Assembly (NCBI GenBank): GCA_024226235.1
Contig: JAAELW010000238.1
Coordinates: 3,046-67,045 of the forward strand
DNA: 64,000 bases
From: a bacterium
GTDB taxonomy: Bacteria > Myxococcota_A > UBA9160 > UBA6930
Direction of reading: 5' to 3'
Numbering within the stretch: position 1 is the first letter of the stretch; each line of letters starts with the position of its first letter. Made by a program: the position numbers and the translations under genes. Below are positions 9,190-61,466 of the stretch, piece after piece. Below the pieces are notes generated by a model that saw only the letters and a program-made list of their open reading frames with translations, searched no databases and had not been told where the DNA came from.

Positions 9190-9894
9190 TCAATTTGCCA
9201 GGGTCGGTGCGCCGGCCGAGCGAAGATGCTCGTACTCCGGCGGCGGGCCGACCCGGAGATCCTCACGCAGCTGCTCGAGCGGTTGCTGCAGGAGCGCTTC
9301 CCAATCCTGATCGATCAGCCATTCGGCGCGACGCCCCCGCCAGTACCCCTGGCGGATCACCCTGCCCATTTCGGAGCGCCAGCCCGCCCCACGCAGAACG
9401 CGTAGCGCCAGATAGCCGATACCGGTGTTCTTCGTCTGCGAGTAGGTGAAGGCGAGACACGCGACCTCTCCCCTCACATCACGTCCGTAGCCGGTCAGGA
9501 CGTGGAAGACATCGTGCAACTCGCGCAGACGTCGTGCGAAGCGCGTTCGATCATCGTCTCCCCCAAAGTAGCCATCCTCGCCTGCAGCGGTCTCGCTCGC
9601 GGCCTTCAGGCCTTGCGCGCTGAGCTCCTCGCTGGTGTAGAAGGCCCAGATGGCCCGGCCCAGCGAGCCTTCGGGCATGGCCCTGAGGTCATCGAGATTC
9701 GAAAGGATGTCGTAGAGTTCGCGCTTCTCGCGCAGGATCCGCTGGCCGCCACTGGACCGTGCGAAGCGATTGAAGCAGCGTTCCCCTGAATTGCCCGACA
9801 TCGCCCCGATCACCCGAATGGCCTGTGCTGTGTCATCGGGATTGGCGCTGAGCGCCATCATCGCACGCTGTGCTTCACGAAGTTGGAATGCCAT
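9190..9894 (-). CDS. coq4: Coq4-family protein (ubiquinone-biosynthesis COQ4 homolog)
   Basis: Carries the COQ4 zinc-ligand signature HDxxH-x11-E: LHDVFHVLTGYGRDVRGE. Length is about 234 aa from MAFQLREAQ. Confidence 0.75.
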   Translation of the reverse strand: MAFQLREAQRAMMALSANPDDTAQAIRVIGAMSGNSGERCFNRFARSSGGQRILREKRELYDILSNLDDLRAMPEGSLGRAIWAFYTSEELSAQGLKAASETAAGEDGYFGGDDDRTRFARRLRELHDVFHVLTGYGRDVRGEVACLAFTYSQTKNTGIGYLALRVLRGAGWRSEMGRVIRQGYWRGRRAEWLIDQDWEALLQQPLEQLREDLRVGPPPEYEHLRSAGAPTLAN

Positions 9895-10105
9895 GGGTTC
9901 GTTCTCTCGGGGAAACGGTTCGAGCGAGTTCCGTGGGGTTGTTCTCTCAGACGCGCTGGGCTGGAGCATTGCCCACTGCGGTTGATGACATTCTGGACCG
10001 TGGAAGTCGCAAACGCAACGCCTGAGGCACGGAGCCGCTGCTCCCCTCGACCAGGCTGTTGATCAACGTCTATTCTCGCGGAGCCATCTGGGTAAAGGGA
10101 GGGAA

Positions 10106-12153: not shown

Positions 12154-13344
12154 ATGGATTTCGAGCTTTCAGACAAGGCCAAGGCGGTAGAAGAGCAGCT
12201 TTGCCGGTTCATGGACGAGTACGTCTACCCCGCGGAGCGCGAATATGCCGAGCAGGCCGAGGCGAAACCCAACGAAGAGCCGGGCATCATGCTCGAGCTT
12301 CGCGCGAAGGCGAAGGAGATCGGGCTCTGGAACCTCTTCCTACCCGACGATGATTGGGGCGCGGGGCTCACGAACCTCGAATACACGCCGCTCTGCGAGA
12401 TCATGGGCCGCAGCGGCATCGCTTCCCGCGTCTTCAACTGCCAGGCACCGGATACGGGAAACGCCGAGATCCTGGCGGAATTCGGAACGCCGGAGCAGAA
12501 GGAGAAATGGCTCCAACCGCTGCTCGACGGAGAGATCCGGTCCTGCTTCTCGATGACAGAGCCGGAGGTTTCGGGGGCAGATCCGACCAAGCTGCAAGCC
12601 CGCGCGGTGAGCGACGGCGACGACTACGTGATCAATGGTCACAAGTGGTTCACCTCGGGCGCGATCGGCGCTGCCTTCGCCATCGCGATGGTCGTGACCG
12701 ATCGCGACGCCGCTCCCCACGAACGCATGAGTCAGATCCTGGTTCCGACCGACAATCCGGGCTTCGACATCATCCGGCCGGTTTCGGTCATGGGGCACAG
12801 CGGGGGCGGAGGGCATTGCGAGGTCCGCTACGAGGACTGCCGCGTGCCTGCGACCAATGTACTGGGGCCCGTGGGCTCGGGGTTCATGATCGCCCAGGCG
12901 CGGCTCGGCCCCGGGCGCATCCATCACTGCATGCGGGCAATCGGCATGGCGGAGCGCGGTTTCGAGATCATGTGCCGAAATGCCAACAGTCGAGAGGTTT
13001 CGGGTGGCCTGCTGCGCGACAAGCAGTTCATCCAGGAATTCGTGGCAACCTCCCGGATGGAGATCGATCAGGCGCGTCTGCTGACTCTGCATGCCGCTCA
13101 CAAGATGGACAAATACGGAAAGAAGCAGGCCCGGCAGGAGATCTCGATGATCAAGGTCGTGGTCCCGAACATGGTCATGACCGTCCTCGATCGCGTGATC
13201 CAGAGCCTGGGCGCACTCGGGGTTTCGGACGACACGCCGGTGGCGGCCATGTGGCGAAACGGACGAATGCTGCGCATCGCGGATGGCCCGGACGAGGTTC
13301 ACAAGATGGTGATCGCCAGGCGCGAGCTCAAGCGCTTCGCGTAG
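12154..13344 (+). CDS. Acyl-CoA dehydrogenase (FadE2/ACAD10-11-like)
   Basis: LWNLFLPDDDWGAGLTNLEYTPLCEIMG...CFSMTEPEVSGADPT...INGHKWFTSGA...RIADGPDEVH. Confidence 0.92.
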   Translation: MDFELSDKAKAVEEQLCRFMDEYVYPAEREYAEQAEAKPNEEPGIMLELRAKAKEIGLWNLFLPDDDWGAGLTNLEYTPLCEIMGRSGIASRVFNCQAPDTGNAEILAEFGTPEQKEKWLQPLLDGEIRSCFSMTEPEVSGADPTKLQARAVSDGDDYVINGHKWFTSGAIGAAFAIAMVVTDRDAAPHERMSQILVPTDNPGFDIIRPVSVMGHSGGGGHCEVRYEDCRVPATNVLGPVGSGFMIAQARLGPGRIHHCMRAIGMAERGFEIMCRNANSREVSGGLLRDKQFIQEFVATSRMEIDQARLLTLHAAHKMDKYGKKQARQEISMIKVVVPNMVMTVLDRVIQSLGALGVSDDTPVAAMWRNGRMLRIADGPDEVHKMVIARRELKRFA

Positions 13345-13380
13345 AGTGCTTCCGGGGGGAGCGCAATCGAGGAGAATCCG

Positions 13381-14076
13381 ATGGCAGACGACGGGACCCG
13401 GAACATGATCGAGGGCATGCTCGCCCAGCTCGAAAAGGAGAAGATGGCGGGCCTCTCGATCGACGATCTCCGAGATGCGATGATGGCGCCCGGTGCAGCC
13501 GAGTCCGTGGCGGAGCTGATGCCGATCGAAGCGGCGTCGGTGCAGCAGGGTGAACCGGCGCCGGATTTCGATCTGGCGTGGCTTCCAGGCAGTGGTCCCG
13601 AAGGAGAAACGCTTCGGCTCTCCTCCCATTTCGGCGACCGACCGGTGGCACTCGTATTCGGCAGTTACACCTGACCGCCTTTCCGGGCCCAGGCTGGGTC
13701 CATCAACCGCATCTACCGCCGCTTCAGGGATCAAGTCGCCTTCTACGTCGTCTACATCAAGGAGATCCATCCGACCGACGGCTGGCAGGTGAAGGAGAAC
13801 GAGCAGGACGCGGTGCTCTTTACACAACATCAGTCGATGGAAGAGCGCGTAGAAGTTGGCGAGGCCTGCATGTTGAAGCTCGCGCTGGAGCCTCCGGCTG
13901 TGGTCGATGAAATGGACGATGCCGTTGCGCGGAACTATGCGGCCGTGCCGGAGCGGCTCTACCTGATCGGCGCCGACGGTCGTGTGGCCTACAAGGGCGG
14001 CATGGGTCCGATGTTCTTCCGGCCCGATGAGTGGGAGGCCGCGATCGAGAGCCACATCGAGAGCACTGGCAAGTAG
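13381..14076 (+). CDS. Deiodinase-like thioredoxin-fold selenoprotein (in-frame UGA = Sec at 13672-13674), soluble form
   Basis: ORFs 13381-13674 and 13789-14076 share one frame, and TGA is the only stop between them. The joined protein reads ...RPVALVFGSYT-U-PPFRAQAGSINRIYRRFRDQVAFYVVYIKEIHPTDGWQ...RLYLIGADGRVAYKGGMGPMFF..., collinear with the iodothyronine deiodinase core. GAGGAG RBS lies before the ATG. Confidence 0.85.
13672..13674 (+). other. Predicted selenocysteine (UGA) recoding site
   Basis: TGA sits between GSYT and PPF, at the position of the catalytic Sec in deiodinases. Confidence 0.8.
13685..13701 (+). promoter_or_regulatory. Candidate bacterial SECIS-like hairpin
   Basis: GGGCCC-AGGCU-GGGUCC forms a 6-bp stem (one G:U pair) with a 5-nt loop containing GG. 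It starts 11 nt after the UGA. Confidence 0.4.
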
Positions 14077-14083
14077 CCCGCTC

Positions 14084-15127
14084 CTATAGCTGCGAAAGGT
14101 AGGCCTCCATCACGGGCTCGAGGTGGTCGGGGTTGAAGCCGAACGGGCCGATTCCCGGGTTGTAGATCACGCGGCCTTCCAGATCGATGAAGTAGATTCG
14201 AGTGGGCCGTGCCGTGTAGAGCGTGGCCACGCGGTTGTCCATCGCATCGACGTAGAGCGGGACGACGCCCTCGAACAGGTTGGCCTGGCAGCTTGCGGCC
14301 ACCCGTTGCCGCTGGGCCAGAGTCACCGGTTCCTTGATGTCGGTACGCGCGCGCTGGCCCGTGAGATCGTTCACGAGCCGCTGGGTACGTGAGCGGCCGA
14401 GCCACCAGCGATCGGTGGGATGGGCTTCCTTGATGTAGACGACGATGAACTCGACCCGATCGTGATACCGCTCGTAGAGGTCTTTGAGACGCACGGTCCC
14501 ATTGCTGAAGGGCGGTCACGTGTAACTGCCAAAGACCAGCGCAACGGGGAGCCTGCCCCGGAAGTCAGAGAGCCGGACCTGGGCGTTTCCCTCCGGGTCT
14601 AGGAGTTCGAAATCCGGTGCCAGATCGCCGGCCTTGGGAGATTTCACATCCTGGGCGAGCTGCCACGTGATCTCTTCATTGCGCCACTCGGCGGCCTGAA
14701 CCAGCAGATCCGTTCCGAGCGTCAGATTGTCCTCGCCCTCCCAGACCATGAAGAAGGACACCACCGCCGCGATCGCGACCGCACCCCCTCGGACGAAGCG
14801 ACCCGGGGAGCGCCGGTTTTCGGAGAGCCCACGTGCGACGTGGAGGAGCAACGCGAATGCTCCAAGCCCGGCCACCAGCGAGACCATCATCGGGGCACCC
14901 CACATCAGGGGCGCCAGCAGGAGAAGGCCCAGCAGCAACCGCAACGCACCGGCTCGGTGGTGCAAGAACAAGCCATGCGCACCGCTGGCAAGCAGGTAGC
15001 AGGAGAGGGCCGCGTGGAAGAAGGCGATCGCTGCGTGGAGGCCATAGACGAGCACGGTCCACAGCAGGTTGGTGGTGTCGACGACGGTTTCATAGCTGGG
15101 GTCCATCGGAGCCTCCACGCCGGGCAT
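14084..15127 (-). CDS. Membrane-anchored deiodinase-like thioredoxin-fold selenoprotein (in-frame UGA = Sec at 14516-14518)
   Basis: ORFs 14516-15127 and 14084-14494 share one frame with no other stop. The N-terminus has about four hydrophobic helices. It continues ...DLAPDFELLDPEGNAQVRLSDFRGRLPVALVFGSYT-U-PPFSNGTVRLKDLYERYHDRVEFIVVYIKEAHPTDRW...IYFIDLEGRVIYNPGIGPFGF. Confidence 0.85.
14485..14501 (-). promoter_or_regulatory. Candidate bacterial SECIS-like hairpin
   Basis: Minus-strand UGGGAC-CGUGC-GUCUCA forms a 6-bp stem (one G:U pair) with a 5-nt loop. It starts 15 nt after the UGA. Confidence 0.35.
14516..14518 (-). other. Predicted selenocysteine (UGA) recoding site
   Basis: Plus-strand tca is TGA on the minus strand, in the same GSYT-U-PPF context as the paralog. 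Confidence 0.8.
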
Positions 15128-15192
15128 GTGTGCCTGGCAACCCTAGCCGAGGCTGTTTGCCGCTGAAGACCGTGCGGACTAGAGTCGAATTT

Positions 15193-15204
15193 GTGAATGT
15201 GAAT
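15193..15204. promoter_or_regulatory. AT-rich GTGAAT-GTGAAT direct repeat in a divergent promoter region (possible operator)
   Basis: tcgaatttGTGAATGTGAATtccgga is an unusually AT-rich island. It lies in the 97-bp gap between the minus-strand selenoprotein gene and the TetR gene. Confidence 0.2.
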
Positions 15205-15224
15205 TCCGGATCCTATTTGCTCGG

Positions 15225-15902
15225 ATGCTTCGAGTGAGGACCCATACGCCCCGGATCGACGATCTCCGGTGGGCAAAGCCGGCCCATCAAGCCCGCAGCC
15301 AGCGCACCCTCGAGCTCCTGCTCGACGCGGCTGAGGCCGAGATCCGTGAGAAGGGCTACGCAGATGCGTCGGTCGCGGAGATCGCGCGTCGCGCGGGGTG
15401 CTCGGTCGGGACCGTCTACCGGCGGTTTCGCGACAAGACCGCGCTGCTCCACGCCCTCGACGAACGCTGGGGGGCGGCGTTCCGTGCCACGATGGAGGAT
15501 GCGGTCGCGCCCGAGCGCTGGCAGGGCGCTCCCATTCTCGAAGTGTTGACCGGCTACATCGCGTTCACACTCAACGAGGGTCACGAGCGTGCCGCACTGC
15601 AGCGCGCCGCGATCACGATGGCCTCGCGTGACGCCAGCTTTGCGGAGCGGCAGATGAAGCTCGCTTCCGAGCTTCATGCGGGACTGCGCGCACTACTCAC
15701 CGCGCGGATCGACGAGATCGGCCACGCCGATCCTCCGCTTGCGATCGAATTCGCACTCGAGCAGTTGAGAGCCATGCTGATGCTTCGTCTGGCTACGCTT
15801 CCGCTCGAAGCGACACTGTTTGGCAATAGTGATGAGCAGTTCATCGATCAGGCCTTGACCAGTATCGCGGCCTATCTGAAGCTCGAACCGCTATCCGCAT
15901 AG
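15225..15902 (+). CDS. TetR/AcrR family transcriptional regulator
   Basis: HTH region: TLELLLDAAEAEIREKGYADASVAEIARRAGCSVGTVYRRFRDKTALLHAL. The gene ends 21 nt before the molybdoenzyme alpha gene. Confidence 0.9.
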   Translation: MLRVRTHTPRIDDLRWAKPAHQARSQRTLELLLDAAEAEIREKGYADASVAEIARRAGCSVGTVYRRFRDKTALLHALDERWGAAFRATMEDAVAPERWQGAPILEVLTGYIAFTLNEGHERAALQRAAITMASRDASFAERQMKLASELHAGLRALLTARIDEIGHADPPLAIEFALEQLRAMLMLRLATLPLEATLFGNSDEQFIDQALTSIAAYLKLEPLSA

Positions 15903-15923
15903 CATCTGCTCAGGAGGGGAACC

Positions 15924-18902
15924 ATGGAAGAACGGAGCACACCGAAGGCCACTGCCGAGGCTACTGGCGGCAAGGCTCCCGCCGCGGGGCTGAGCCGTCG
16001 CCGCTTCCTTCACCTCAGTGGGCTCGGTGTGGCATCGCTGCCGCTGCTCCACTTCGAGAGTACGCCCGCGCGTGCGGCCGCCACGGCGAAACCCAAGCTC
16101 CTGAGCTGGGAGGATCTCTACCGGGAGCGCTGGACCTGGGATCGCGTGGCGAAGGGCTCCCACGGCTGGCTGAACTGCCGCAGCGCGTGCAACTGGGACC
16201 TCTACGTAAAAGATGGGATCGTCGTCCGAGAGGAGCAGGCGGCGAACTACGAGGCTTCGGAGCCCGGGGTACCCGATTTCAATCCTCGTGGTTGTCAGAA
16301 GGGCGCCTGCTACACGGAGGTGATGTATGGCCCGAGCCGACTGACGGTTCCGCTCAAGCGGGCCGGCGAGCGGGGAGAGGGCAAGTGGAAGCAGATCGGC
16401 TGGGACCAGGCCCTCCGCGAAATCGCCGAGAAGCTGATCGACATCTGCCAGCGGTATGGCGGCGAAGCGCTCGTCCAGGATCTGGGCCCCCACTTCGATC
16501 TCGGTGCAACCAATGCGGCTCGCAACCGATTCTTCGGCATGTTGGGTGCGTCTCTCCCCGATGACTGGGCGGAGATCGGGGACCTGAACATTGGCGCGAC
16601 GCTCTCGCTCGGAATCCCGCACATCGGAGGCTCTTCCGACGAGTGGTTCCTCTCGGACTTCCTGGTGGTCTGGATGATGAACCCCTCCGTCACCCAGATG
16701 TCCGATGCCCATTTCCTCTACGAGGCGAAGTACAACGGCGCGGAGCTGGCGGTGATCGACCCCGTCTACAGCGCCACCGCGATGCACGCGGATCAATGGG
16801 TCCCGATCCGGCCCGGCAGTGACGCAGCGCTCGGGCTGGCCACCGCGCGCCACATCTGGGAGAGCGGGCGGATCGATCTCGACTACGTCCGGGAGCAGAC
16901 CGACCTTCCCATCCTGGTCCGCCTGGATACCGGACGCTTCCTCCGCGAGTCGGATCTTCGCACGGGAGGGGCGGACGACCTGCTCTACCTCTGGGACTCC
17001 AAGCAGGACGCGCTCGTCCCTGCACCGGGCTCCCAGGGCAACGACGAGCGCGTAAAGCTCTTCCTGGAGGGACTCGAGCCCGTGATCGAGGGGCGCTTCG
17101 AGGTGGACCTCGCCGACGGCACCCGCATCGGGGTAGCGCCCGTGGGCTCACTACTGCGCGAGCACCTCGATCCATGGACCTTCGAGCGCGCGGCTGCGGT
17201 CACCGGCCTGGACGCTGCGGTGGTCGAGCAATTCGCCGAGGGCTTCGCGGCAGCCGAGCGGCCGATGGTGCTCTCGAGCTGGGGATCGAATCGCTACCTC
17301 CACTCAGACCTGATCAATCGGACCAAGCTGCTCTGCCTCTCGCTGAAGGGAGCGATCGGCAAGAAGGGCGCCGGCTACCACTCCACTGGCTGGGTCGGCA
17401 TCGATGGATTTGGCCAGGTTGCCCAGGACGCCGGAGAGGGTTTCATCGGAACGCTTCGCGGAATGGCGAAAGTGTTCGGAAGCGCCAAGGTGATCGGCAT
17501 GCTGGTGGACCAGATCGCCGGCAAGAAGTCCGAGGCGCAAGTCCAACACGAGCTGACGCGTCACCTGACCACCGGTGAGGATTCGTGCCTGACCAACTCG
17601 GCCAGCCAGAACTACAAATTCCAGGGCCTGGCCGACGATCTCGCGCGTGAGCAGGACCACCTGTATCCGCAACCGCTGGCTGCCTACGTGGCGGAATCCG
17701 AGGCCAAGGGCTGGATGCCCACGCATCCCGCGAAGGGCACCCGACCGCGCTGTTGGGTGACCGGGGGCAGCAACGTGCTGCGACGCACGAACCTGCCCCA
17801 GCGCATGCTCGAAACACTCTGGCCAGGGCTCGAACTCGTGATCGACGTGAACCAGAAGCACACCTTCACGGGGCTCCACGCCGACTACCTCCTGCCTGCT
17901 GCCGGCTACTACGAGAAGCCGGGCATCAAATACTCGGTGGCCTACGTCCCCTACCTGCACTACTGCGACCGGGCGGTGAAGCCGGTCGGTGAGGCGAAGG
18001 ACGAGTGGGAGCTCTACTCGCTGCTGGCCCGGGAGATCCAGCGGATTGCCCAGGAGCGCAACCTCGAGCCGACCCAGGGCTGTGGCACCCAGACGGTCGA
18101 GCTCAAGACGTTTGCCGACCGTTTCTCGTTTGCCGGAGAGTACGGGCCCGAGGATGTGGAGGCGGTCAACCAGTTGATCCTCGAGAAGAGCCCCTCGGCA
18201 GAAGGAATGACCGTCGAGAGCCTCAAAAAGACCGGTATCGCCAAATATCGGAGCGTCGGAGGGATGGGGATCCAGGAGAACCTCTTCAATTCGGATTGGA
18301 AGGGAGAGGGAATGATGCGTGCGCTCACGGACATGAGTGAGCAGCGCTGGCGCTGGCCGACATTGACCGGAAGGCAGCAGTGCTACATCGACCATCCGTG
18401 GTTCATCGGGGCCGGTGAAAGCCTGCCCGATCACAAGGAGAGCCCGAAGGCCGGCGGTGACCATCCGTTCCAGTTCGTTTCGTGCCACTCTCGCTGGAGC
18501 GTCCACAGCGTGTGGCGCGACACCACGATGCTGCTGCGCCTGCAACGTGGAGAGCCGGTCGTGTATCTGAACCCGGCCGAGGCTCAAAGGCTCGGAGTCG
18601 AAGACGGTGCCTGGGCCGAGATCAGCAACGACTACGGCAGCATCCTGATGCGCGCCAAGCACTCCGCCATGGTGCGTCCGACTGTGGCGTACTACTTCCA
18701 TGCCTGGGAGCCGCATCAGTTCCCGGAGCACAAGAGCTACAAGTGGTTGATTCCGGGTTTGATGAACCCACTGCATTTTGCGGGCGGAGAGGGACACCTC
18801 GGCTGGTTCTTCGGTCAGTACACGCCGGGCACCCACGTGCAGGACACGCGCGTTGCCATTGCACCCTCGAATGGCCCGCAGCGGCAGGGAGAACAGAGTT
18901 GA
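15924..18902 (+). CDS. Type II DMSO-reductase-family molybdoenzyme, catalytic alpha subunit (NarG/EbdA-like), Tat-exported
   Basis: Twin-arginine signal LSRRRFLHLSGLG. FS0 motif SHGWLNCRSACNWDLYVKDG...NPRGCQKGAC. NarG-like ...TQMSDAHF segment carrying the expected Mo-ligand Asp. Confidence 0.9.
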   Translation: MEERSTPKATAEATGGKAPAAGLSRRRFLHLSGLGVASLPLLHFESTPARAAATAKPKLLSWEDLYRERWTWDRVAKGSHGWLNCRSACNWDLYVKDGIVVREEQAANYEASEPGVPDFNPRGCQKGACYTEVMYGPSRLTVPLKRAGERGEGKWKQIGWDQALREIAEKLIDICQRYGGEALVQDLGPHFDLGATNAARNRFFGMLGASLPDDWAEIGDLNIGATLSLGIPHIGGSSDEWFLSDFLVVWMMNPSVTQMSDAHFLYEAKYNGAELAVIDPVYSATAMHADQWVPIRPGSDAALGLATARHIWESGRIDLDYVREQTDLPILVRLDTGRFLRESDLRTGGADDLLYLWDSKQDALVPAPGSQGNDERVKLFLEGLEPVIEGRFEVDLADGTRIGVAPVGSLLREHLDPWTFERAAAVTGLDAAVVEQFAEGFAAAERPMVLSSWGSNRYLHSDLINRTKLLCLSLKGAIGKKGAGYHSTGWVGIDGFGQVAQDAGEGFIGTLRGMAKVFGSAKVIGMLVDQIAGKKSEAQVQHELTRHLTTGEDSCLTNSASQNYKFQGLADDLAREQDHLYPQPLAAYVAESEAKGWMPTHPAKGTRPRCWVTGGSNVLRRTNLPQRMLETLWPGLELVIDVNQKHTFTGLHADYLLPAAGYYEKPGIKYSVAYVPYLHYCDRAVKPVGEAKDEWELYSLLAREIQRIAQERNLEPTQGCGTQTVELKTFADRFSFAGEYGPEDVEAVNQLILEKSPSAEGMTVESLKKTGIAKYRSVGGMGIQENLFNSDWKGEGMMRALTDMSEQRWRWPTLTGRQQCYIDHPWFIGAGESLPDHKESPKAGGDHPFQFVSCHSRWSVHSVWRDTTMLLRLQRGEPVVYLNPAEAQRLGVEDGAWAEISNDYGSILMRAKHSAMVRPTVAYYFHAWEPHQFPEHKSYKWLIPGLMNPLHFAGGEGHLGWFFGQYTPGTHVQDTRVAIAPSNGPQRQGEQS

Positions 18903-19936
18903 GCAAGCAACAAGCGAGCCGTCAGGTCGCGATGGTGATGGACCTGAACAAATGCCTCGGTTGCCAGACGTGTACGGTGGCCTGCAAGAAGCTCTGGAAT
19001 CGGGAGTCCGGCGCCGACTACGCGTACTGGAACAATGTCGAAACCATGCCGGGAAAGGGCTATCCGGGGCGATGGCAAGAGACCGGCGGCCGTCACGTCG
19101 ACGCTTCGGTCAAACGCGGCGAGCTTCCGAGCCTCGAACGCGACTACGGACGGGCGTGGAAGTTCAACCATCAGGACGTCGTCCGCTCGAACTCCAAGCG
19201 GGGGGACACCTGGCTTCGCCCGGAAGGCGATCCAAAGTGGGGTCCGAACTGGGACGAGGATCGTGGCGCGGGGAACTATCCCGAAGACAACCACTACTTC
19301 TACCTGCCTCGGATCTGCAACCACTGCACTCATCCGGCATGCCTGGACGCCTGCCCGCGCGCCGCGATCGAGAAACGGGACGAGGACGGGATCGTGTTGG
19401 TCGACCAGGATCGTTGCCACGGCTACCGCTTCTGCGTCGAGGCCTGCCCCTACAAGAAGGTCTTCTTCGATCCGGAAAGGCAGGTCGCGAACAAATGCAT
19501 CTTCTGCATGCCCCGGGTCGAACAAGGGGTGGCACCGGCCTGTGCGCGCCAATGCCCGGGGCGGATGCGCTTCGTCGGCTACCTGGATGACGAAGACGGA
19601 CCCATCCACAAGCTGGTATACGGCTGGAAGGTCGCGCTGCCGCTGCATCCGGAGTACGGGCTCCTGCCGAATGTGTTCTACGTCCCGCCGATGAGCCCGA
19701 GCGCGATGGATGCGAACGGGAAGCCGACGGAAGCGCCGCGCATTCCGATGGAAACCCTCGAGGGCCTGTTCGGACCCAGCGTACGCGAAGCGCTGGCGAC
19801 CGTCGAAGCCGAGCGCGCCAAGCGAAAACGGGGGGAGCCGAGCGAGCTGATGGACCTGCTGATCGCCTACGACTGGAACGAGAATTTCCAGCTCGGTGCG
19901 GGCGGGTCGGTCTGGCCGCGCGAAGGGAGGGCGTGA
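18899..19936 (+). CDS. Type II DMSO-reductase-family beta subunit (NarH/EbdB-like, four Fe-S clusters)
   Basis: Cys groups CLGCQTCTVACK, CNHCTHPACLDACP, CHGYRFCVEACPY (second Cys replaced, 3Fe-4S type) and CIFCMPRVEQGVAPACARQCP. I propose TTG 18899 as the start, overlapping the alpha stop; ATG 18932 is the alternative. Confidence 0.88.
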   Translation: MSKQQASRQVAMVMDLNKCLGCQTCTVACKKLWNRESGADYAYWNNVETMPGKGYPGRWQETGGRHVDASVKRGELPSLERDYGRAWKFNHQDVVRSNSKRGDTWLRPEGDPKWGPNWDEDRGAGNYPEDNHYFYLPRICNHCTHPACLDACPRAAIEKRDEDGIVLVDQDRCHGYRFCVEACPYKKVFFDPERQVANKCIFCMPRVEQGVAPACARQCPGRMRFVGYLDDEDGPIHKLVYGWKVALPLHPEYGLLPNVFYVPPMSPSAMDANGKPTEAPRIPMETLEGLFGPSVREALATVEAERAKRKRGEPSELMDLLIAYDWNENFQLGAGGSVWPREGRA

Positions 19937-20493
19937 TGGCGACGAGCCCCGGGAAGATCGAGCTGATTGCTGCACCCATCGGAATACAACCGGGTGGCTA
20001 TGTCCCGAAGGCCTACGCAGGCCGTGACAAGGCCCCGATGACACCGAGCCTCGAACTGGAGGTGGCGCAGCCGCCCGGAGCCTGGCGTCTGCGCCTGCGT
20101 TGGCCCTGCGCCGAGCCGGTCGTCGACGTGAGCGAGGATCCCTCGCTCTTCCCCGACGCGGCGGCGCTGTTCTCCCCCCAGCAAGAGGATACGCCCTGGG
20201 TCACGATGGGTGCGCCCGGCAACGGGGTGGATGGCGTGCTCTGGCGGGCCGATGGCGAACGCCTTCACCGCATTTCCGCCGAGGGTCTTGGCAGCATGAC
20301 GCGGTCCGACGCCCCGGAGAGCTGGCGCTCCAGCGCTGCGCACGAACGGGGCTTCTGGCAACTCGAGTTCACGCTTTCGGGCTGGGCCAGCTTGGATCGT
20401 TCGAAGAGAGTGGCGGTGGCCATCTGGCGCGGCTCGGCCCAGGATCGGGGCGGGCTCAAGTCCGTGACCGGGGGCTTTCTGGAGGTCGGGTGA
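19933..20493 (+). CDS. EbdC/NarM-like (EB_dh domain) putative heme-b gamma subunit, with no recognisable signal peptide
   Basis: ...DAAALFSPQQEDTPWVTMGAPG...VAVAIWRGSAQDRGGLKSVTG resembles the EB_dh heme-b domain, with candidate Met and Lys ligands. The start overlaps the beta stop. Confidence 0.65.
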   Translation: MMATSPGKIELIAAPIGIQPGGYVPKAYAGRDKAPMTPSLELEVAQPPGAWRLRLRWPCAEPVVDVSEDPSLFPDAAALFSPQQEDTPWVTMGAPGNGVDGVLWRADGERLHRISAEGLGSMTRSDAPESWRSSAAHERGFWQLEFTLSGWASLDRSKRVAVAIWRGSAQDRGGLKSVTGGFLEVG

Positions 20494-20495
20494 GC

Positions 20496-21020
20496 ATGGA
20501 AGCGCGGCTCGAAGCAGCGCTGCCCTTCGTCGCGTGGTCACGCGTCTGGAGCCCGCTCGCACCCGAAGCGTGGCGCCAGGAGGCGTGGACAGCGCTCTCG
20601 CTGCCGGGAAGTTTCGCAGATCTGGAGAGCGCCTTCCTCGATGCCTTCGTCATCGGGCTCGGTGGACCCGATGTCCCGCTGCTGCTCCACGCAGCGCTTG
20701 GCCGCGACGGCGGTACCGTGCGGGAGGATTGGATGCGGGTCATCCAGCACCTCGAGCTTCAATGGAAGGAGCAGGCGCTTCCGCCCGACCATCTCGGTGT
20801 GGCTTGCGACGTGGTGGCCCGTGCCATCGAGCGCGACGAGCCTCTGCTGATTCGCGAGCTCCGCAGGCGCTACCTGGATCCGTGGTGCGCGGTCGCATCC
20901 GAACGGCTTGTAGAAAAGGACGCCGGTCTGGCGGCGCTCCCCGAGGTCTTTGCCTCTGACCTGGCAGTCCTCGCACAAGCCGAGGCTGAGGCCGATCCGC
21001 CGTTCGGTGGCGTCTCATGA
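20496..21020 (+). CDS. TorD/NarJ/DmsD-family molybdoenzyme maturation chaperone (delta subunit)
   Basis: About 175 aa and helical: FADLESAFLDAFVIGLGGPDVPLLLHAALG...LPPDHLGVACDVVA...LRRRYLDPW. It sits immediately after the gamma gene. Confidence 0.7.
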   Translation: MEARLEAALPFVAWSRVWSPLAPEAWRQEAWTALSLPGSFADLESAFLDAFVIGLGGPDVPLLLHAALGRDGGTVREDWMRVIQHLELQWKEQALPPDHLGVACDVVARAIERDEPLLIRELRRRYLDPWCAVASERLVEKDAGLAALPEVFASDLAVLAQAEAEADPPFGGVS

Positions 21021-22523: not shown

Positions 22524-23249
22524 ATGGCCACTGCCATTGTCGTCGGTGTGGGTGCCGAGAGGGGCGTGGGGGGTGCGTTGTGCCGGCGTTTCGCGAGCGA
22601 GGGGTTGCATGTACTGGTGGGTGGCCGCACCCCCTCCAAGATCGAAGCGGTCGTCGACCACCTGCGCGAGCAGGGGGGACGAGCGACTCCGGTCCAGATC
22701 GATGCCACACGCAGTGAAGACATCTCCCGAATCTTTGACGCAGCAGAGCAGGCCGGAGGCGTCCCCGAACTGGTCGTCTACAACGCTGGCAACAACCGGT
22801 TCAGCGGCCTGCGCGAGATGAGCGACGAGTTCTTCGAGGAGGTCTGGCGTATCTGCTGCTTCGGCGGCTTCCTGGTCGGGCGCGAAGCCGCGACGCGGAT
22901 GCTTCCTGCGGGCGGGGGGAGCCTGCTCTTTACCGGTGCCACCGCTTCGATGCGCGCCCGCCCACCTTTCACCGCCTTCGCGTCAGCCAAGGCGGCCCTT
23001 CGCATGGTGGCACACGGAATGGCCCGCGAATTCGGGGGCGAGGGCCTGCATGTCGGCCACGTCGTGATCGACGGCGTGATCGACGGCGACCGCATCAACG
23101 AACGCATGCCTGCGATCAAGGAGCGCCTCGGCGCGGAAGGGATGCTTCAGGTGGATGACATCGCATCTGCATTCTGGATGCTGCATACGCAGCCGAAGAG
23201 TAGCTGGACGCTGGAGCTCGACATCCGTCCGTTCAAGGAGAGCTTCTGA
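22524..23249 (+). CDS. Short-chain dehydrogenase/reductase (SDR)
   Basis: IVVGVGAERGVGGALCRRFASEG...YNAGN...FASAKAALR shows the Rossmann motif plus the SDR catalytic pattern. Confidence 0.85.
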   Translation: MATAIVVGVGAERGVGGALCRRFASEGLHVLVGGRTPSKIEAVVDHLREQGGRATPVQIDATRSEDISRIFDAAEQAGGVPELVVYNAGNNRFSGLREMSDEFFEEVWRICCFGGFLVGREAATRMLPAGGGSLLFTGATASMRARPPFTAFASAKAALRMVAHGMAREFGGEGLHVGHVVIDGVIDGDRINERMPAIKERLGAEGMLQVDDIASAFWMLHTQPKSSWTLELDIRPFKESF

Positions 23250-23252
23250 CCT

Positions 23253-24014
23253 TCAGCTGATGCGCGAAAAGCCGATCAGACCACCGCCATCGAGAACGAA
23301 AGCCTGGCCGGTGATCCAACCGCTGGCCTCGCCGTGGGCCAGGAAGAGGGCTGCAGCGGCCACGTCCTCGGGCTCGCCCAGGCGTTTCAACGGGTAGGAC
23401 CGCGCGACCTTGTCACCCTGGTCGCCCTCCCACAAGGCGCGGGCGAAGTCGGTCTTGATCAGGCCCGGCGCGATCGCATTGACCCGTACATGGGGTCCGA
23501 GTTCCGCCGCCAGCTGCTTGGTGAGATGGATCAGCGCAGTCTTGGTCAGATCGTAGACGCCGATAATCGGGCTGGTGCCGAAGGCACCGACACTGGCGAT
23601 GTTGATCACCGCGCCACCGTGCTCCTTCATGTGCCGCTGCCAGGCGCGTTGGGTCCAGAAGAGCGGGGCGGTGAGGTTCACTTCGAGGGTCTTCTGCCAG
23701 CGTGGCATGTCCACGTCGATGGTCGGCCCGGCATAGGGGTTGGTCGCGGCATTGTTGACCAGGATGTCGAGACCGCCCAGCCGGTCGAGGGTCGCGCTGA
23801 TCACGCGCTCTGAATCCTCGCTCTTTCCAATGTGGCCCGGTTCGAAGTGGGCGCGCTCGCCGATCTCTTTCACGGCCGCTTCGCAGCTCTCGGCGTTGCG
23901 CGAGGTGATCATCACCTCGGCACCGGCGTCGGCGAAGGCCTGGGCAATGCCCTTGCCGATGCCGCGAGAGCCACCCGTCACGAGCGCCACCTTGCCGTCT
24001 AGCCGCCATTCCAT
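23253..24014 (-). CDS. Short-chain dehydrogenase/reductase (SDR)
   Basis: GKVALVTGGSRGIGKGIA...NNAATNP...YDLTKTALIHLTKQLA...GQAFVLDGG. The start is moved to MEWRLDGK. Confidence 0.9.
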   Translation of the reverse strand: MEWRLDGKVALVTGGSRGIGKGIAQAFADAGAEVMITSRNAESCEAAVKEIGERAHFEPGHIGKSEDSERVISATLDRLGGLDILVNNAATNPYAGPTIDVDMPRWQKTLEVNLTAPLFWTQRAWQRHMKEHGGAVINIASVGAFGTSPIIGVYDLTKTALIHLTKQLAAELGPHVRVNAIAPGLIKTDFARALWEGDQGDKVARSYPLKRLGEPEDVAAAALFLAHGEASGWITGQAFVLDGGGLIGFSRIS

Positions 24015-24092
24015 CGCGGATTCTCCTCGGGCTCGAAAAATGACATGAGCAGTGTCATATTTCAAGGTTCACATCGATTCCGGAGACCCGAC

Positions 24093-25340
24093 ATGCCGAT
24101 GAACGTCCAATCCATCCCCACGCTTTCGGATCGCATCAACCAGGTGCGGTTGCTCACGGCCGAGATCGTCAATCGCGAGATCCTGCCCAACGAGAATACC
24201 CTGTGGCGTTGGCACCGGGATGGTTTCGAGGAGAGCGCGCGTGAGAAGGCGCGGGAACTGCGTCACGACATCCAGGCGAAGGTGAAGCAAGCGGGCCTGT
24301 GGGCACCCCACCTGCCGGAAGACTACGGCGGCTGCGGGCTCAGCTTCCTCGAGCACGCCTACATGAACGAGATCCTGGCCTACAGCGTGGGCGCGGCTTC
24401 GTTGTTCGGGGTGGTGGCACCGAACTCGGGCAACCAGAAGATCCTGCTCAAGTACGGCACCGAGGCGCAGCGCCAGAAGTGGCTGGTGCCGTTGACCGAA
24501 GGCAAGCTCGAGAGCGGTTTCTCGATGACCGAGCCCGACAACGCCGGCTCCGATCCCCGTTCCATCAAGACCACGGCTCGCAAGGACGGGGACCAATGGG
24601 TGATCAACGGCCACAAGTGGTTCACCTCGAACGGCAAGCGCGCCGACTTCCTGATCGTGATGTGCCGGACCGACGATCCGGATGCAGCGGGTGACAAGAA
24701 CACGAAGATGACGCAGATCATCGTTCCGACGGATACCCCCGGCGTGAACCTGATCCGCGGTGTCGAGGTCTGGGGACGCCAAAGCGACCACTGGGAGATC
24801 ATCTACGACGACGTTCGCGTGCCTCTCGAGAATCAGCTCGGTCAGACCGGCTCGGGCCACGCCGCGGCACAAGATCGGCTGGGCGCGGGAAGGGTCTACC
24901 ACTGCATGAATTCAGTGGGCTCGATGTGGCGTGCATTCGACCTGATGGTCGAACGCGCGATGGTTCGGGAAGTTCATGGTGGGCTCCTCGAAACCAAGCA
25001 ATTCGTCCAGGGCTGGATCGCCGATTCCTTCATCGATATCCAGGCCGCCCGCCTGATGACCATCAACTGTGCCGAGAAGATGGACGGAGGCACGGATGCG
25101 CGGACCGACATCTCGGCGCTCAAGATCTTCGTGCCCCATGTCTTCAGCAAGGTCGCGGATCGGGCCATCCAGGTCTGGGGCGCTGCCGGTGTGTCTGGGG
25201 ATCTGCCGCTTTCGGCCATGTATCAGGGCGCACGCACGCTGCGGCTTGCGGACGGTCCGGACGAGGTCCACAAGATCCTGATCGCCAAGAACGTGCTCAA
25301 GCAGTACCACTCGGGTGTGTCCTGGGACTTCGGAAACTAG
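24093..25340 (+). CDS. Acyl-CoA dehydrogenase (FadE2/ACAD10-11-like)
   Basis: GLWAPHLPEDYGGCGLSFLEHAYMNE...GFSMTEPDNAGSDP...INGHKWFTSNG...RLADGPDEVH. Confidence 0.92.
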   Translation: MPMNVQSIPTLSDRINQVRLLTAEIVNREILPNENTLWRWHRDGFEESAREKARELRHDIQAKVKQAGLWAPHLPEDYGGCGLSFLEHAYMNEILAYSVGAASLFGVVAPNSGNQKILLKYGTEAQRQKWLVPLTEGKLESGFSMTEPDNAGSDPRSIKTTARKDGDQWVINGHKWFTSNGKRADFLIVMCRTDDPDAAGDKNTKMTQIIVPTDTPGVNLIRGVEVWGRQSDHWEIIYDDVRVPLENQLGQTGSGHAAAQDRLGAGRVYHCMNSVGSMWRAFDLMVERAMVREVHGGLLETKQFVQGWIADSFIDIQAARLMTINCAEKMDGGTDARTDISALKIFVPHVFSKVADRAIQVWGAAGVSGDLPLSAMYQGARTLRLADGPDEVHKILIAKNVLKQYHSGVSWDFGN

Positions 25341-25366
25341 ACACCCTTCATCGGAGGAGGACATTC

Positions 25367-25912
25367 GTGAGACTCGACACCCCCCGCGTTCCGCCGCTCG
25401 ACCCGTCCGAGATGGACGAGAAACTCCGCGAACGGTTTGGGGACCGTCCGATCCTCAACATCTTCCGCACGCTGGCCCAGCATCCCGATCTGATGCGGCG
25501 CTGGCTCGTGTTCGGCAACCATGTACTCGCCAAATCGACGCTACCGGCCCGCGAACGCGAACTGGTGATCCTTCGCATCGGCTATCTGTGTCGCGCTGGC
25601 TACGAATGGGGCCAGCACGTGGAGATCGGCAAGCAGAGCGGCCTGACGGACGACGAGATCACCGCGATCGCAGAGGGTCCGGGTGCAGGTGGGTGGAGCG
25701 AGCTCGACCGGGCTCTGCTTCAGGCCACGGACGAACTGCACGGCGACGCATTCATCGGCGATGCGACCTGGCAGACGCTCAGCAAGCACCTCGATACCCA
25801 GCAGTTGATGGATCTGGTCTTTTCGGTCGGCCAGTACAACCTGGTGTCCATGGCCTTGAACACGCTGGGTGTCCAGCCTGAGCCCGGCTTGGCGAAGCTG
25901 CCCGACGCGTGA
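25367..25912 (+). CDS. Carboxymuconolactone decarboxylase (AhpD-like) family protein
   Basis: LPARERELVILRIGYLCRAGYEWGQHVEIGKQSGLTDDEI...LVFSVGQYNLVSMALN. GTG 25367 is preceded by GGAGGAGG. The upstream part of ORF 24926 overlaps the ACAD gene and is discarded. Confidence 0.8.
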   Translation: MRLDTPRVPPLDPSEMDEKLRERFGDRPILNIFRTLAQHPDLMRRWLVFGNHVLAKSTLPARERELVILRIGYLCRAGYEWGQHVEIGKQSGLTDDEITAIAEGPGAGGWSELDRALLQATDELHGDAFIGDATWQTLSKHLDTQQLMDLVFSVGQYNLVSMALNTLGVQPEPGLAKLPDA

Positions 25913-26709
25913 GCGGGCGGCTCCAGGGAAAGATCGCGCTGGTCATCGGCGCGGGCCAGACGCCGGGCGACACGATCGGCAACGGTCGAGCCACGGCGAT
26001 CCTGTTCGCCAGGGAAGGTGCTTTGGTCGTGGCCGTCGACCGCGACGGGGCTTCGGCCGAAGCCACCGTGGCCACGATCCTGGAAGAAGGTGGCCAGGCG
26101 AGTGCATACGCTGCGGATGCGACCGTGGAAGCCGAGGTCGAGGCGCTCGTCGCTTCGTGCAAGAGCAGCTACGGCCGGATCGACATCCTGCACAACAATG
26201 TCGGGATCGGCGGAGACGACGCGGGACCCGCCCACGTCACGGAGGAGGTCTGGGATCGGATCCTGGGCGTGAACCTGAAGAGTGCGATCTTCCCGTGCAA
26301 GCACGTGCTACCCGTGATGCGTGAGCAGCAGAGCGGTGCGATCGTCAACATTTCGTCGATCGCTGCGGTCTGTTCGACGGGGATCGTGGCCTACAAGACC
26401 TCCAAGGCCGGCCTGAATGCCTACACCCAGGCCCTGGCCGTCGGCAACGCGAAATACGGAATCCGGGCCAATGTGATCATGCCGGGCTTGATGAACACAC
26501 CGATGGCCATCGAGGGGATCTCGGCTGCACGGGGAGTGCCGAAGGACGATCTGATCCGCGCCCGCGATGCGATGGTTCCGTTGGGAGCCAAGATGGGTAC
26601 CGGCTGGGACATCGCCGCTGCAGCCGTCTTTCTCGCCTCGGACGAGGCGCAGTTCATCACCGGAATCGTACTTCCGGTCGATGGGGGCCAGAGCGCACGA
26701 GTAGGCTGA
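25909..26709 (+). CDS. Short-chain dehydrogenase/reductase (FabG-like)
   Basis: GKIALVIGAGQTPGDTIGNGRA...HNNVGI...YKTSKAGLNAYTQALA...GIVLPVDGG. The GTG start overlaps the previous stop (GTGA). Confidence 0.9.
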   Translation: MSGRLQGKIALVIGAGQTPGDTIGNGRATAILFAREGALVVAVDRDGASAEATVATILEEGGQASAYAADATVEAEVEALVASCKSSYGRIDILHNNVGIGGDDAGPAHVTEEVWDRILGVNLKSAIFPCKHVLPVMREQQSGAIVNISSIAAVCSTGIVAYKTSKAGLNAYTQALAVGNAKYGIRANVIMPGLMNTPMAIEGISAARGVPKDDLIRARDAMVPLGAKMGTGWDIAAAAVFLASDEAQFITGIVLPVDGGQSARVG

Positions 26710-60122: not shown

Positions 60123-61466
60123 ATGATCAAGGAGAGGGATATGGCCGGCCTCGAGACCCATGACGAGATGTACGACCTGAGGATGTCGAAGGGCGCCAAA
60201 CCGCTCTTCGAGAAGGTCAAAGCCTTCGTCAAGGAAGAAATCGAGCCGATCACGCTCGAGTTCTACCAACTCGGCGAGAACAGGGAGGAGCGCTGGGCAT
60301 GGGCTCCCGGACAACTCGAACTGCTCGACGGCGTCAAGGCCAAGGCGAAGGCAGCCGGCCTGTGGAACTTCTTCCTTCCCGACGATGACACGGGGCAGGG
60401 CCTGTCGAACCTCGACTACGCCTACATTGCAGCCGAGTTGGGCAAGAACCCGCTTGCGCCGGAGTGCCTCAACTGCTCCGCACCCGATACCGGAAACATG
60501 GAGGTCCTCGAACGCGTCGGGACACAGGAACAGAAGGAGACGTGGCTCACTCCGCTCCTGAACGGCGAGATCCGCTCGGCCTATGCAATGACGGAGCCCG
60601 ACCTCGCTTCATCGGATGCCAGGAACATCTCCTGCCGGGCCGATCTCGTCGGCGACGAATGGGTGATCAACGGCGAGAAGTACTACATCTCCGGCGCCGG
60701 AGATCCGCGTTGCAAGATCATGATCGTGATGGTGCAGACAGACCAGGACGCGGCGCCCCACCTCAAGCAGTCGCAGATCCTCGTTCCGACCGACGCCCCC
60801 GGCTTCGAAATCCTCGGCCCGATGCACGTATTCGGCAAGGACGACGCGCCCCACGGCCACATGCACCTGCGCTTCACGAATTGCCGCGTCCCCAAGGAGA
60901 ATATCCTGCTCGGAGAGGGTCGGGGCTTCGAGATTTCGCAGGTGCGGCTCGGGCCGGGACGCATCCACCACTGCATGCGATCGATCGGTGCCGCCGAACG
61001 AGCCGTCGAGATGATGGCGAAGCGGAGCCTGGCTCGAGAGGCGTTCGGAAGGCGAATCGCCAACCTCGGGAAGACCGCCGAGGTGATCGCCAAGGCGCGC
61101 ATCGAGATCGAGGCCATGCGCATGATGGTGCTCAAGGCAGCCAAGGCCATGGACGTCCTGGGCAACGCGGAGGCTCGCGTCTGGGTGAGTGCGATCAAGG
61201 CGATGGTCCCGATTCGCGTCTGCGCGATCATCGATGAGGCGATCCAGCTCCACGGCGCAACCGGTGTCTCGCAGTGGACCCCGCTGACGGACATGTACAC
61301 GGGGCAACGAACGCTTCGCCTGGCCGACGGTCCGGACGAGGTGCACTGGTTCGTCGTGGGACGAGCCGAGCTCTCGCGTTGGGCGGAGGATGGCGCGAGC
61401 GACTACGACCCGAAGGCCGCCTTCGAAGCACTCCCGGTGATGGGCAAGAACTTCACGGGCCCGTGA
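60123..61466 (+). CDS. Acyl-CoA dehydrogenase (FadE2/ACAD10-11-like)
   Basis: GLWNFFLPDDDTGQGLSNLDYAYIAAELG...AYAMTEPDLASSDA...INGEKYYISGAG...RLADGPDEVH. Alternative start at ATG 60141. Confidence 0.92.
   Translation: MIKERDMAGLETHDEMYDLRMSKGAKPLFEKVKAFVKEEIEPITLEFYQLGENREERWAWAPGQLELLDGVKAKAKAAGLWNFFLPDDDTGQGLSNLDYAYIAAELGKNPLAPECLNCSAPDTGNMEVLERVGTQEQKETWLTPLLNGEIRSAYAMTEPDLASSDARNISCRADLVGDEWVINGEKYYISGAGDPRCKIMIVMVQTDQDAAPHLKQSQILVPTDAPGFEILGPMHVFGKDDAPHGHMHLRFTNCRVPKENILLGEGRGFEISQVRLGPGRIHHCMRSIGAAERAVEMMAKRSLAREAFGRRIANLGKTAEVIAKARIEIEAMRMMVLKAAKAMDVLGNAEARVWVSAIKAMVPIRVCAIIDEAIQLHGATGVSQWTPLTDMYTGQRTLRLADGPDEVHWFVVGRAELSRWAEDGASDYDPKAAFEALPVMGKNFTGP

Follow-up and report, generated by a model that had tools for sequence, protein, structure and literature searches.

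Do two deiodinase-like selenoprotein genes and the molybdenum (Mo) enzyme operon beside them belong to one pathway? The question is raised by a 64,000-nucleotide stretch of contig JAAELW010000238.1 (assembly GCA_024226235.1, lineage Myxococcota_A), which is called the window here. At this locus, a convergent pair of deiodinase-like genes, one encoding a soluble and the other a membrane-anchored protein, lies next to an operon that begins with a tetR gene. An earlier note on this DNA proposed that these genes form a redox or dehalogenation module. Such a deiodinase-molybdoenzyme module would, if true, be a new pathway; comparative genomics gives no support for it. We consider it fairly likely that the region is instead a juxtaposition of three independent units. 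The first would consist of an acyl-CoA dehydrogenase (ACAD) and a cytoplasmic deiodinase-like selenoprotein. The second would be a separately transcribed deiodinase-like selenoprotein with a four-transmembrane-helix (4-TM) anchor, whose catalytic domain is predicted to be periplasmic by the positive-inside rule. The third would be a portable tetR-alpha-beta-gamma-delta cassette, encoding an enzyme that resembles ethylbenzene dehydrogenase (EBDH) and perchlorate reductase and is presumably exported by the twin-arginine translocation (Tat) pathway. The features of the locus, in window coordinates, are as follows.

12154..13344, + strand: ACAD (Pfam Acyl-CoA_dh_N/M/1)
13381..14076, + strand: soluble deiodinase-like selenoprotein, 231 amino acids (aa) (read-through translation, Pfam PF00837)
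13685..13702, + strand: hairpin of the soluble gene resembling a selenocysteine insertion sequence (SECIS) (comparative pairing and covariation, 15 sequences)
14084..15127, - strand: membrane-anchored deiodinase-like selenoprotein, start likely ATG 15106, 340 aa (translation, Pfam PF00837)
14485..14501, - strand: SECIS-like hairpin of the membrane gene (comparative pairing and covariation, 28 sequences)
15188..15218, + strand: conserved 31-bp block AATTTGTGAATGTGAATTCCGGATCCTATTT (common to the closest tetR-Mo cassettes)
15225..15902, + strand: TetR-family regulator, first gene of the Mo cassette (Pfam TetR_N, 58 bits)
15924..18902, + strand: catalytic (alpha) subunit of the type II dimethyl sulfoxide (DMSO) reductase family, 992 aa (PDB matches, TIGR03479)
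18899..19936, + strand: Fe-S (beta) subunit (NCBIfam TIGR03478, Pfam Fer4_11)
19933..20493, + strand: haem-b (gamma) subunit, EbdC-like (2ivf_C, TIGR03477)
20496..21020, + strand: probable NarJ/TorD-like assembly chaperone (delta) (weak Pfam Nitrate_red_del match, position)

The layout described in the earlier note stands in full, apart from minor corrections to two start codons. The soluble gene begins 36 nt after the ACAD gene and has its own ribosome-binding site, a GAGGAG Shine-Dalgarno sequence in the gap; given this short gap, the two genes are probably co-transcribed. The soluble and membrane genes converge with 7 nt between their stop codons (14074-14076 and 14084-14086), and both are deiodinase-like selenoprotein genes according to their TGA codons and Pfam scores. 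Automated annotation divides them into four fragments. The tetR gene, which ends 21 nt before the start of the alpha gene, heads an operon for a periplasmic enzyme of the type II DMSO reductase family, as had been claimed; we find a Tat signal, an Asp ligand to Mo and the set of subunits.

The proposed linkage among these genes was examined in about 90 related loci. Scanning metagenomes with the alpha subunit yielded 77 loci, each of which was searched by tblastn with all window proteins. The beta and gamma genes adjoin alpha in nearly all 77, and none of the 77 has a deiodinase-like gene in the available flanking DNA. The membrane paralogue was compared across ~14 distinct loci (L007-L016, L165/166, L167 and L169), none of which contains this Mo operon, a TetR of the window type or the soluble paralogue. 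For the soluble type, the contexts of the closest relatives (L001-L005 and L170-L172) were examined. Their neighbours vary and include Rieske proteins, luciferase-like monooxygenases, a PhyH dioxygenase and a sulfite-oxidase-type enzyme; no type II Mo operon, window-type TetR, membrane paralogue or adjacent ACAD gene is present beside the soluble-type genes in these contexts. Synteny of the components is thus absent in all directions, and the idea of one redox or dehalogenation module is not borne out. As far as public data allow, the orthologues are never syntenic elsewhere, which is the outcome that the earlier note itself had named as counting against its proposal.

Two apparent links were considered and rejected. 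An ACAD gene lies within 5 kb in ~5 of the 14 membrane-deiodinase loci, and ~40% would be expected from the density of ACAD genes in the window. The Mo gene near the deiodinase-like gene of L013 encodes a cytoplasmic enzyme of 710 aa from another family, only 26% identical to the alpha subunit (MoA) of the window.

The Mo genes and their regulator, by comparison, have a history of their own. In the three closest relatives (L088, L093 and L112), MoA is 86-87% identical to that of the window and an orthologous TetR gene (74-77%) lies directly upstream. The only one of these with long flanks, L093, resides on a 376-kb contig and has only tetR-alpha-beta-gamma-delta in common with the window; both flanks are unrelated. 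The only part of the spacer upstream of tetR that is common to the closest cassettes is the 31-bp block, which is kept in both of those that reach into the upstream DNA. Because L093 shares the cassette alone, and because the block is confined to the closest cassettes, TetR appears to belong to a portable Mo cassette. The block (AATTTGTGAATGTGAATTCCGGATCCTATTT) occurs only once in the window, where 0.01 chance matches would be expected, and carries a tandem GTGAAT repeat together with -35/-10-like hexamers. From these features, it is probably the promoter/operator of the tetR-Mo cassette. The hexamers lie only 6-15 nt from the tetR start codon, and this closeness points to a tetR mRNA with a short leader or none at all.

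By its sequence, the Mo enzyme is a member of the type II DMSO reductase family, in the clade of EBDH, PcrA, SerA, ClrA and DdhA. The alpha subunit has a twin-arginine motif (SRRRFLHLSG), an FS0 His/Cys motif (SHGWLNCRSAC) and the Asp220 ligand to Mo, whose IGD motif aligns with EbdA D223. The beta subunit scores 503 bits against TIGR03478, above the cut-off of 481. The gamma subunit matches 2ivf_C (EbdC) at 2e-10 and keeps the haem ligands Met108 and Lys201. For delta, the match to Nitrate_red_del is weak (E=0.005, below cut-off), and its position 3' of gamma is kept in L093 and L154 (42-43% identity). The window operon shares with EbdABCD and PcrAB the set of alpha, beta, gamma and probable delta genes, Tat signal, Asp ligand, FS0 motif, four-cluster beta subunit and haem-b gamma subunit with Met/Lys ligands. 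It differs from them in being headed by TetR, in alpha and gamma scores below the NCBIfam subfamily cut-offs (alpha 819 bits against TIGR03479, cut-off 985; gamma 72 bits against TIGR03477) and in belonging to its own metagenomic clade, with orthologues at 55-87% identity.

The best PDB matches of alpha are PcrA and EbdA, both at ~1e-142 and ~480 bits. Alpha is thus equidistant from the two, and its sequence assigns no substrate. The TetR gene at the head of the operon and the ACAD gene of L093 hint at a catabolic hydroxylase role akin to that of EBDH. In L093, an ACAD gene (15153-16289) whose product is 45% identical to the window ACAD (12154) directly follows the Mo chaperone gene. From this position, the unit linked to acyl-CoA metabolism may be the Mo cassette and not the deiodinase genes.

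Each of the two deiodinase-like genes contains an in-frame TGA. The codon lies at 13672-13674 (+) in the soluble gene, within ALVFGSYT-U-PPFRAQAG, and at 14516-14518 (-) in the membrane gene, within ALVFGSYT-U-PPFSNGTV. Protein searches, together with a scan across 185,579 genomes, supplied related loci. The 52 motif hits are spread over Myxococcota, Chloroflexota, Planctomycetota, Latescibacterota, Acidobacteriota, Gaiellales and other groups; 51 of them have TGA as the codon that follows FGS(Y/F)T, and one has TGC (Cys). Full-length Cys homologues are found for both proteins (P0001, 63% identical to the soluble protein; P0122, 59% identical to the membrane protein), and the coding signal and reading frame run on past the TGA in both genes. 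About 100 metagenomic homologues of the membrane protein, 196-221 aa and mostly 216 aa long, end precisely at ...FGSYT. We have high confidence in the prediction that both TGAs are selenocysteine (Sec) codons, as the pattern is far beyond chance. A scan of the window for other selenoprotein candidates with in-frame TGA codons gave antisense-frame artefacts only.

Each subfamily has its own SECIS-like hairpin, as judged from covariation among aligned sequences. In the soluble gene, the predicted structure starts 11 nt past the UGA and has a 6-bp stem and a 5-nt loop (AGGCU; family loop AGGYK). Pairing is retained in 86.7% of cells over 15 sequences, compared with 34-54% in slid controls. Compensatory double changes occur at five pairs and include complete CCC/GGG to GGG/CCC flips. 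In the membrane gene, the stem UGGGAC/GUCUCA with loop CGUGC (family loop CGUGN) starts 14 nt past the UGA. Here, 88.7% of cells pair over 28 sequences, compared with 32-53% when the 3' arm is slid, and four pairs show compensatory double changes. In both cases, the covariation score was reached by none of 500 shuffles. One compensatory A-U to G-C change in the membrane hairpin joins an ACC to GCC change (Thr to Ala) with a synonymous change of AGU to AGC. Since the partner change is synonymous, selection at the protein level does not explain that covariation. Both hairpins fit the bacterial SECIS form, a stem-loop shortly past the UGA with a G in a small apical loop. They emerged from comparative analysis only; single-sequence folding around the TGAs gave unremarkable z-scores.

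In two database proteins, P0152 and P0220, the N-terminal anchor is followed at once by the second half of the deiodinase domain, so that the Sec region is skipped. Errors of gene calling near the TGA are the probable cause, although the two may represent a real deletion variant.

In 2005, Zhang, Fomenko and Gladyshev (PMC1088965) reported bacterial deiodinase-like selenoproteins with a bacterial SECIS element, together with Cys homologues, from the Sargasso Sea. The family is also listed in a 2022 review of prokaryotic selenoproteomes, and a 2026 review still treats it as functionally uncharacterised (PMC13188914). No characterised bacterial member was found in the searchable literature. The window proteins share with the 2005 proteins the family PF00837, the catalytic UGA-encoded Sec, the downstream SECIS hairpin, the existence of Cys homologues, a marine metagenomic origin and a presumed redox role. 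They differ in that two anciently diverged subfamilies stand tail to tail and in that one protein has a 4-TM N-terminal anchor for which Pfam and NCBIfam have no model. In addition, the window motif is U-P-P-F, whereas the table of the 2026 review lists UxxC.

Membership in the Pfam family T4_deiodinase (PF00837) is clear, with 114 bits for the soluble and 89 bits for the membrane protein at a gathering cut-off of 27. The corresponding scores against NCBIfam NF038285, "deiodinase family protein", are 192.5 and 163 bits; both lie below the curated cut-off of 250, and the matches cover only the C-terminal half of the 347-position profile. The two window proteins are ~37% identical to each other and differ in their post-Sec motifs and hairpins. 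On this comparison, the soluble and membrane genes are ancient paralogues from two subfamilies and not the product of a recent or tandem duplication. Two deiodinase-like genes also lie 1-4 kb apart in the Planctomycetota loci L045, L041 and L046, and the pair of L045 (6530-8392) is in tandem. Thus, paired deiodinase-like genes exist elsewhere, but not as a convergent pair of soluble and membrane forms.

The only PDB sequence matches of the soluble protein are mouse Dio3 (4TR3, 6e-24) and Dio2 (9H48). The motifs shared with these mammalian iodothyronine deiodinases are FGSxT-U-PPF, Y-I-x-E-x-H-P-(S/T)-D-G-W, E-R-L-Y and GGxGP. Residues equivalent to Dio3 Glu200/His202 are present in the E-x-H-P segment (KEIHP and KEAHP), and EAH occurs in at least 90% of 47 bacterial sequences. 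A second Cys is conserved to the same extent (at least 90% of the 47) and lies in VGEAC of the soluble and VAASC of the membrane protein. Its position is ~9 alignment columns (8 Dio3 residues) ahead of that of Dio3 Cys239, and its conservation makes it a candidate resolving residue. The positions of Dio3 His219 and Arg275, which we take to be substrate-binding residues of Dio3, are treated differently. The Arg275 position, unconserved, is Met in the soluble and Ile in the membrane protein, and the His219 position, unconserved across the family, is His only in the soluble form of this pair.

As a stand-in for the membrane protein of the window, the Cys homologue P0122 was modelled with AlphaFold2, giving a mean predicted local distance difference test (pLDDT) score of 72 with portions of the catalytic domain modelled at low confidence. 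Among PDB folds, Dio3 (4TR3) matches this model best, with a TM-score of 0.66 relative to the target. The next matches are peroxiredoxins (Bcp, AhpE) and membrane-tethered thiol-disulfide oxidoreductases.

These comparisons bear on the chemistry. The chemistry that we favour as most likely for the deiodinase-like proteins is a peroxiredoxin-like cycle, the possible substrates being peroxides, disulfides and halogenated phenols. The proteins could instead be true reductive dehalogenases of halogenated phenolics, such as marine metabolites resembling iodo- or bromo-tyrosine, and not enzymes of the peroxidase or thiol-oxidoreductase type. Dio3 and Dio2 are indeed the nearest solved relatives, ahead of any peroxiredoxin, the S-x-T-U and E-x-H catalytic residues are kept, and the soluble form has a His aligned with His219. 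Moreover, soluble-type genes often adjoin genes for oxygenases of the Rieske, luciferase-like and PhyH kinds. However, the replacement of Arg275 by Met or Ile and the variability of the His219 position in the family do not favour this interpretation, the resolving-type Cys and the peroxiredoxin fold matches suit general redox chemistry equally well, and no bacterial member has been characterised. We regard true dehalogenation as unlikely. In contrast to the mammalian enzymes, thyroid hormone is not expected to be a substrate. The oxygenase-type neighbours include a Rieske ring-hydroxylating alpha subunit and a small Rieske protein, and no one partner is conserved. The sites at which soluble-type genes lie beside oxygenase-type genes (in one case, beside a sulfite-oxidase-type Mo enzyme) are listed here.

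L170:201-2996
L001:7717-10151
L005:8640-10365
L171:4363-7087

The membrane paralogue combines an N-terminal 4-TM anchor with a C-terminal deiodinase domain, according to hydropathy and charge analysis. In the AlphaFold2 model of P0122, the first ~130 residues form four confidently modelled helices. No Pfam or NCBIfam model matches the anchor (window 14675-15127, -). A search with it among 1.84 billion representative proteins yielded only 47 clusters, mostly of 196-220 aa. Since these lengths are as expected from cutting at the Sec codon, the anchor is seemingly for the most part a portion of deiodinase-like selenoproteins, and the anchor family appears to be small and dedicated to selenoproteins. 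The N-terminus of the protein lacks Lys and Arg and has a net charge of -4, five Lys/Arg occur in the loop at residues 99-116, and the segment after TM4 is acidic. By the positive-inside rule, this pattern predicts that both termini are outside (N-out, C-out), which would place the catalytic domain on the periplasmic side. Mammalian deiodinases are likewise anchored in the membrane at the N-terminus, but through one helix rather than four, and their SECIS elements reside in the 3' untranslated region, whereas the SECIS-like hairpins of the window are inside the coding region, as in bacteria.

Among the loci with membrane-type orthologues, four (L007-L010) have a co-directional operon in which a TetR gene (TetR_C_29) is followed by DoxX_2 and then by the membrane deiodinase gene. 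At a further site, represented by two samples (L165/L166), DoxX_2 again precedes the deiodinase gene, and one membrane-deiodinase locus has a divergent MauE-like gene. Coordinates of the DoxX_2-deiodinase sites are as follows.

L007:5837-8146
L008:8873-11080
L009:4745-6912
L010:7377-9608
L165:5553-7083

Because DoxX_2 is directly upstream of orthologues at these five sites, it is a possible membrane redox partner of the membrane deiodinase-like protein, and a parallel may be drawn with membrane redox complexes that contain DoxX. The window differs from these in having neither a DoxX_2 gene nor a TetR of the TetR_C_29 type, and any connection to quinones or DoxX is conjectural. The window TetR belongs to a different subfamily from the regulators beside the membrane-deiodinase orthologues. 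ResA, SdbA, Etrx2 and FetE, which are among the fold matches of P0122, are likewise membrane-tethered, outward-facing proteins of thioredoxin or peroxiredoxin fold, but the window protein has a catalytic Sec in a deiodinase motif and not a CxxC motif.

A literature search for deiodinase together with DoxX found no paper linking them, and, to our knowledge, the 4-TM-anchored subfamily and the TetR-DoxX_2 operon of its relatives are undescribed. It is conceivable, and we suggest it only tentatively, that the 4-TM selenoprotein acts as catalytic subunit in a membrane-coupled selenoenzyme system that faces the periplasm and is as yet undescribed. Electrons would arrive through DoxX_2, possibly from the quinone pool, and would be used to reduce halogenated phenolics or another oxidised substrate. 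At the locus studied here, the gene would have lost its own TetR and DoxX_2 genes and would now lie beside an unrelated Mo cassette. In the window (9190-9969, -) as well as in L169 (276-1001, on an 8.1-Mb contig), ~5 kb separates the membrane deiodinase gene from a Coq4-family gene. This shared proximity may be residual synteny or chance.

The remaining point of contact between the second and third units is the spacer between the divergent membrane and tetR genes. The earlier note described it as an AT-rich promoter region of 97 bp (15128-15224). Its composition was recognised correctly (54.6% GC, compared with ~64% for the window), but its length is probably 118-127 bp once the start codons are corrected. 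Homologues of the membrane protein all begin with MDPxYETV, which corresponds to ATG 15106, and a GGAGG site lies 5' of this codon. For these reasons, ATG 15106 is preferred over 15127 and is likely to be the true start. The NCBI annotation and L093 suggest an alternative start for tetR, which may begin at GTG 15234.

Several observations weigh against our reading of three independent units, two of them encoding selenoproteins. Many of the related loci are short contigs, and absence of linkage is firm only for the ~11 orthologous Mo loci whose upstream flank is 5 kb or longer and for the ~14 membrane-deiodinase loci with sufficient flanks. The same arrangement does recur in L006, from a second assembly, but this is essentially the same organism, with 99.3-100% identity in the shared genes. 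With regard to recoding, Rfam reports no SECIS or other RNA family, either in the whole window at the gathering threshold or in 13600-14600 at E<=10. We take this result to mean that Rfam has no suitable bacterial SECIS models; it is no evidence against Sec. Similarly, selA, selB, selC and selD are not seen in the 64-kb window, and no tRNA is present, tRNA-Sec included; the absence of tRNA-Sec from 64 kb of sequence is unremarkable. Finally, the membrane gene and tetR share their spacer, and TetR occupancy could therefore influence the membrane gene in this genome.

The last point might amount to local regulatory coupling and nothing further: the TetR of the cassette would also repress the membrane gene from back-to-back promoters, without a common pathway. 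The shortness of the spacer makes this arrangement feasible, as does the position of the 31-bp block, 61-91 nt upstream of the membrane-gene start codon (82-112 nt if counted from 15106). However, the block abuts tetR and not the membrane gene, and the remaining spacer is unique to this genome. A search of the spacer for inverted repeats found no palindrome and no second operator, and a promoter scan of 13300-16000 scored no sigma-70-like promoter. On balance, coupling of this kind is improbable.

A larger version of the idea, and the one originally advanced, places both selenoproteins and a TetR-controlled Mo enzyme in one pathway that is co-regulated from the divergent spacer. In such a pathway, a halogenated organic compound could, for example, first be reductively dehalogenated and then undergo anaerobic hydroxylation and beta-oxidation. 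The genes are adjacent, tetR and the membrane gene are divergent, and an ACAD gene directly follows the Mo cassette in L093. The window is also rich in genes of beta-oxidation or redox type. It has three ACADs in 64 kb, an enoyl-CoA hydratase, three short-chain dehydrogenases/reductases and a glutathione S-transferase, as well as a major facilitator superfamily transporter, an aldehyde:ferredoxin oxidoreductase and a second molybdopterin oxidoreductase (731 aa, cytoplasmic type). Those beyond the locus, two further ACADs included, are at these positions.

24045-25340
60123-61466
984-1862
22524-26709
61508-63487
48388-50583

Against this stand the lack of conserved synteny in any direction, the fact that TetR and the upstream block accompany only the Mo cassette, and the presence of a different TetR beside relatives of the membrane gene. 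The proximity of ACAD genes is accounted for by their density in the window. Hence, a shared pathway with common control is very improbable.

A reading in which translation truly ends at the TGAs, or in which the genes are pseudogenes, so that the locus encodes four small fragments, can be dismissed almost with certainty. Automated annotation does call four fragments, in a window devoid of sel genes and tRNA-Sec, but of the 52 motif hits, which come from many phyla, 51 have TGA as the catalytic codon, frame and coding signal persist beyond it, Cys homologues are known, and covarying hairpins lie 3' of it.

Returning to three independent units, a mechanism can be proposed. It starts from what the analysis showed: how the genes are built, that they carry Sec recoding signals, which families they belong to and that their linkage is not conserved. 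Its topology, catalytic cycle, TetR operator and substrates are what we infer. TetR would bind the 31-bp block until a ligand related to the substrate of the Mo enzyme releases it, and the cassette would then be derepressed. In both deiodinase-like genes, UGA would be read as Sec with the aid of the hairpin just 3'. The resulting selenolate would attack an oxidised or halogenated substrate to form a selenenyl intermediate, which the conserved second Cys would resolve, and a thiol or membrane donor would re-reduce the enzyme. The soluble enzyme presumably operates in the cytoplasm, and the membrane enzyme at the outer face of the membrane, probably with DoxX_2 in those relatives that have it.

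The window genes extend the bacterial deiodinase-like selenoproteins that were already described. They provide two clean, well-supported examples, each of which standard annotation splits in two, and the SECIS-like hairpin of each subfamily is now backed by covariation. The tetR-MoABCD genes represent an uncharacterised clade that is related to EBDH and perchlorate reductase and recurs in public metagenomes. The most interesting by-product of the analysis is the 4-TM subfamily with its TetR-DoxX_2 operon, since the location of the membrane-type gene beside DoxX_2 and a dedicated TetR offers an experimental handle on the partner, regulator and topology of these proteins.

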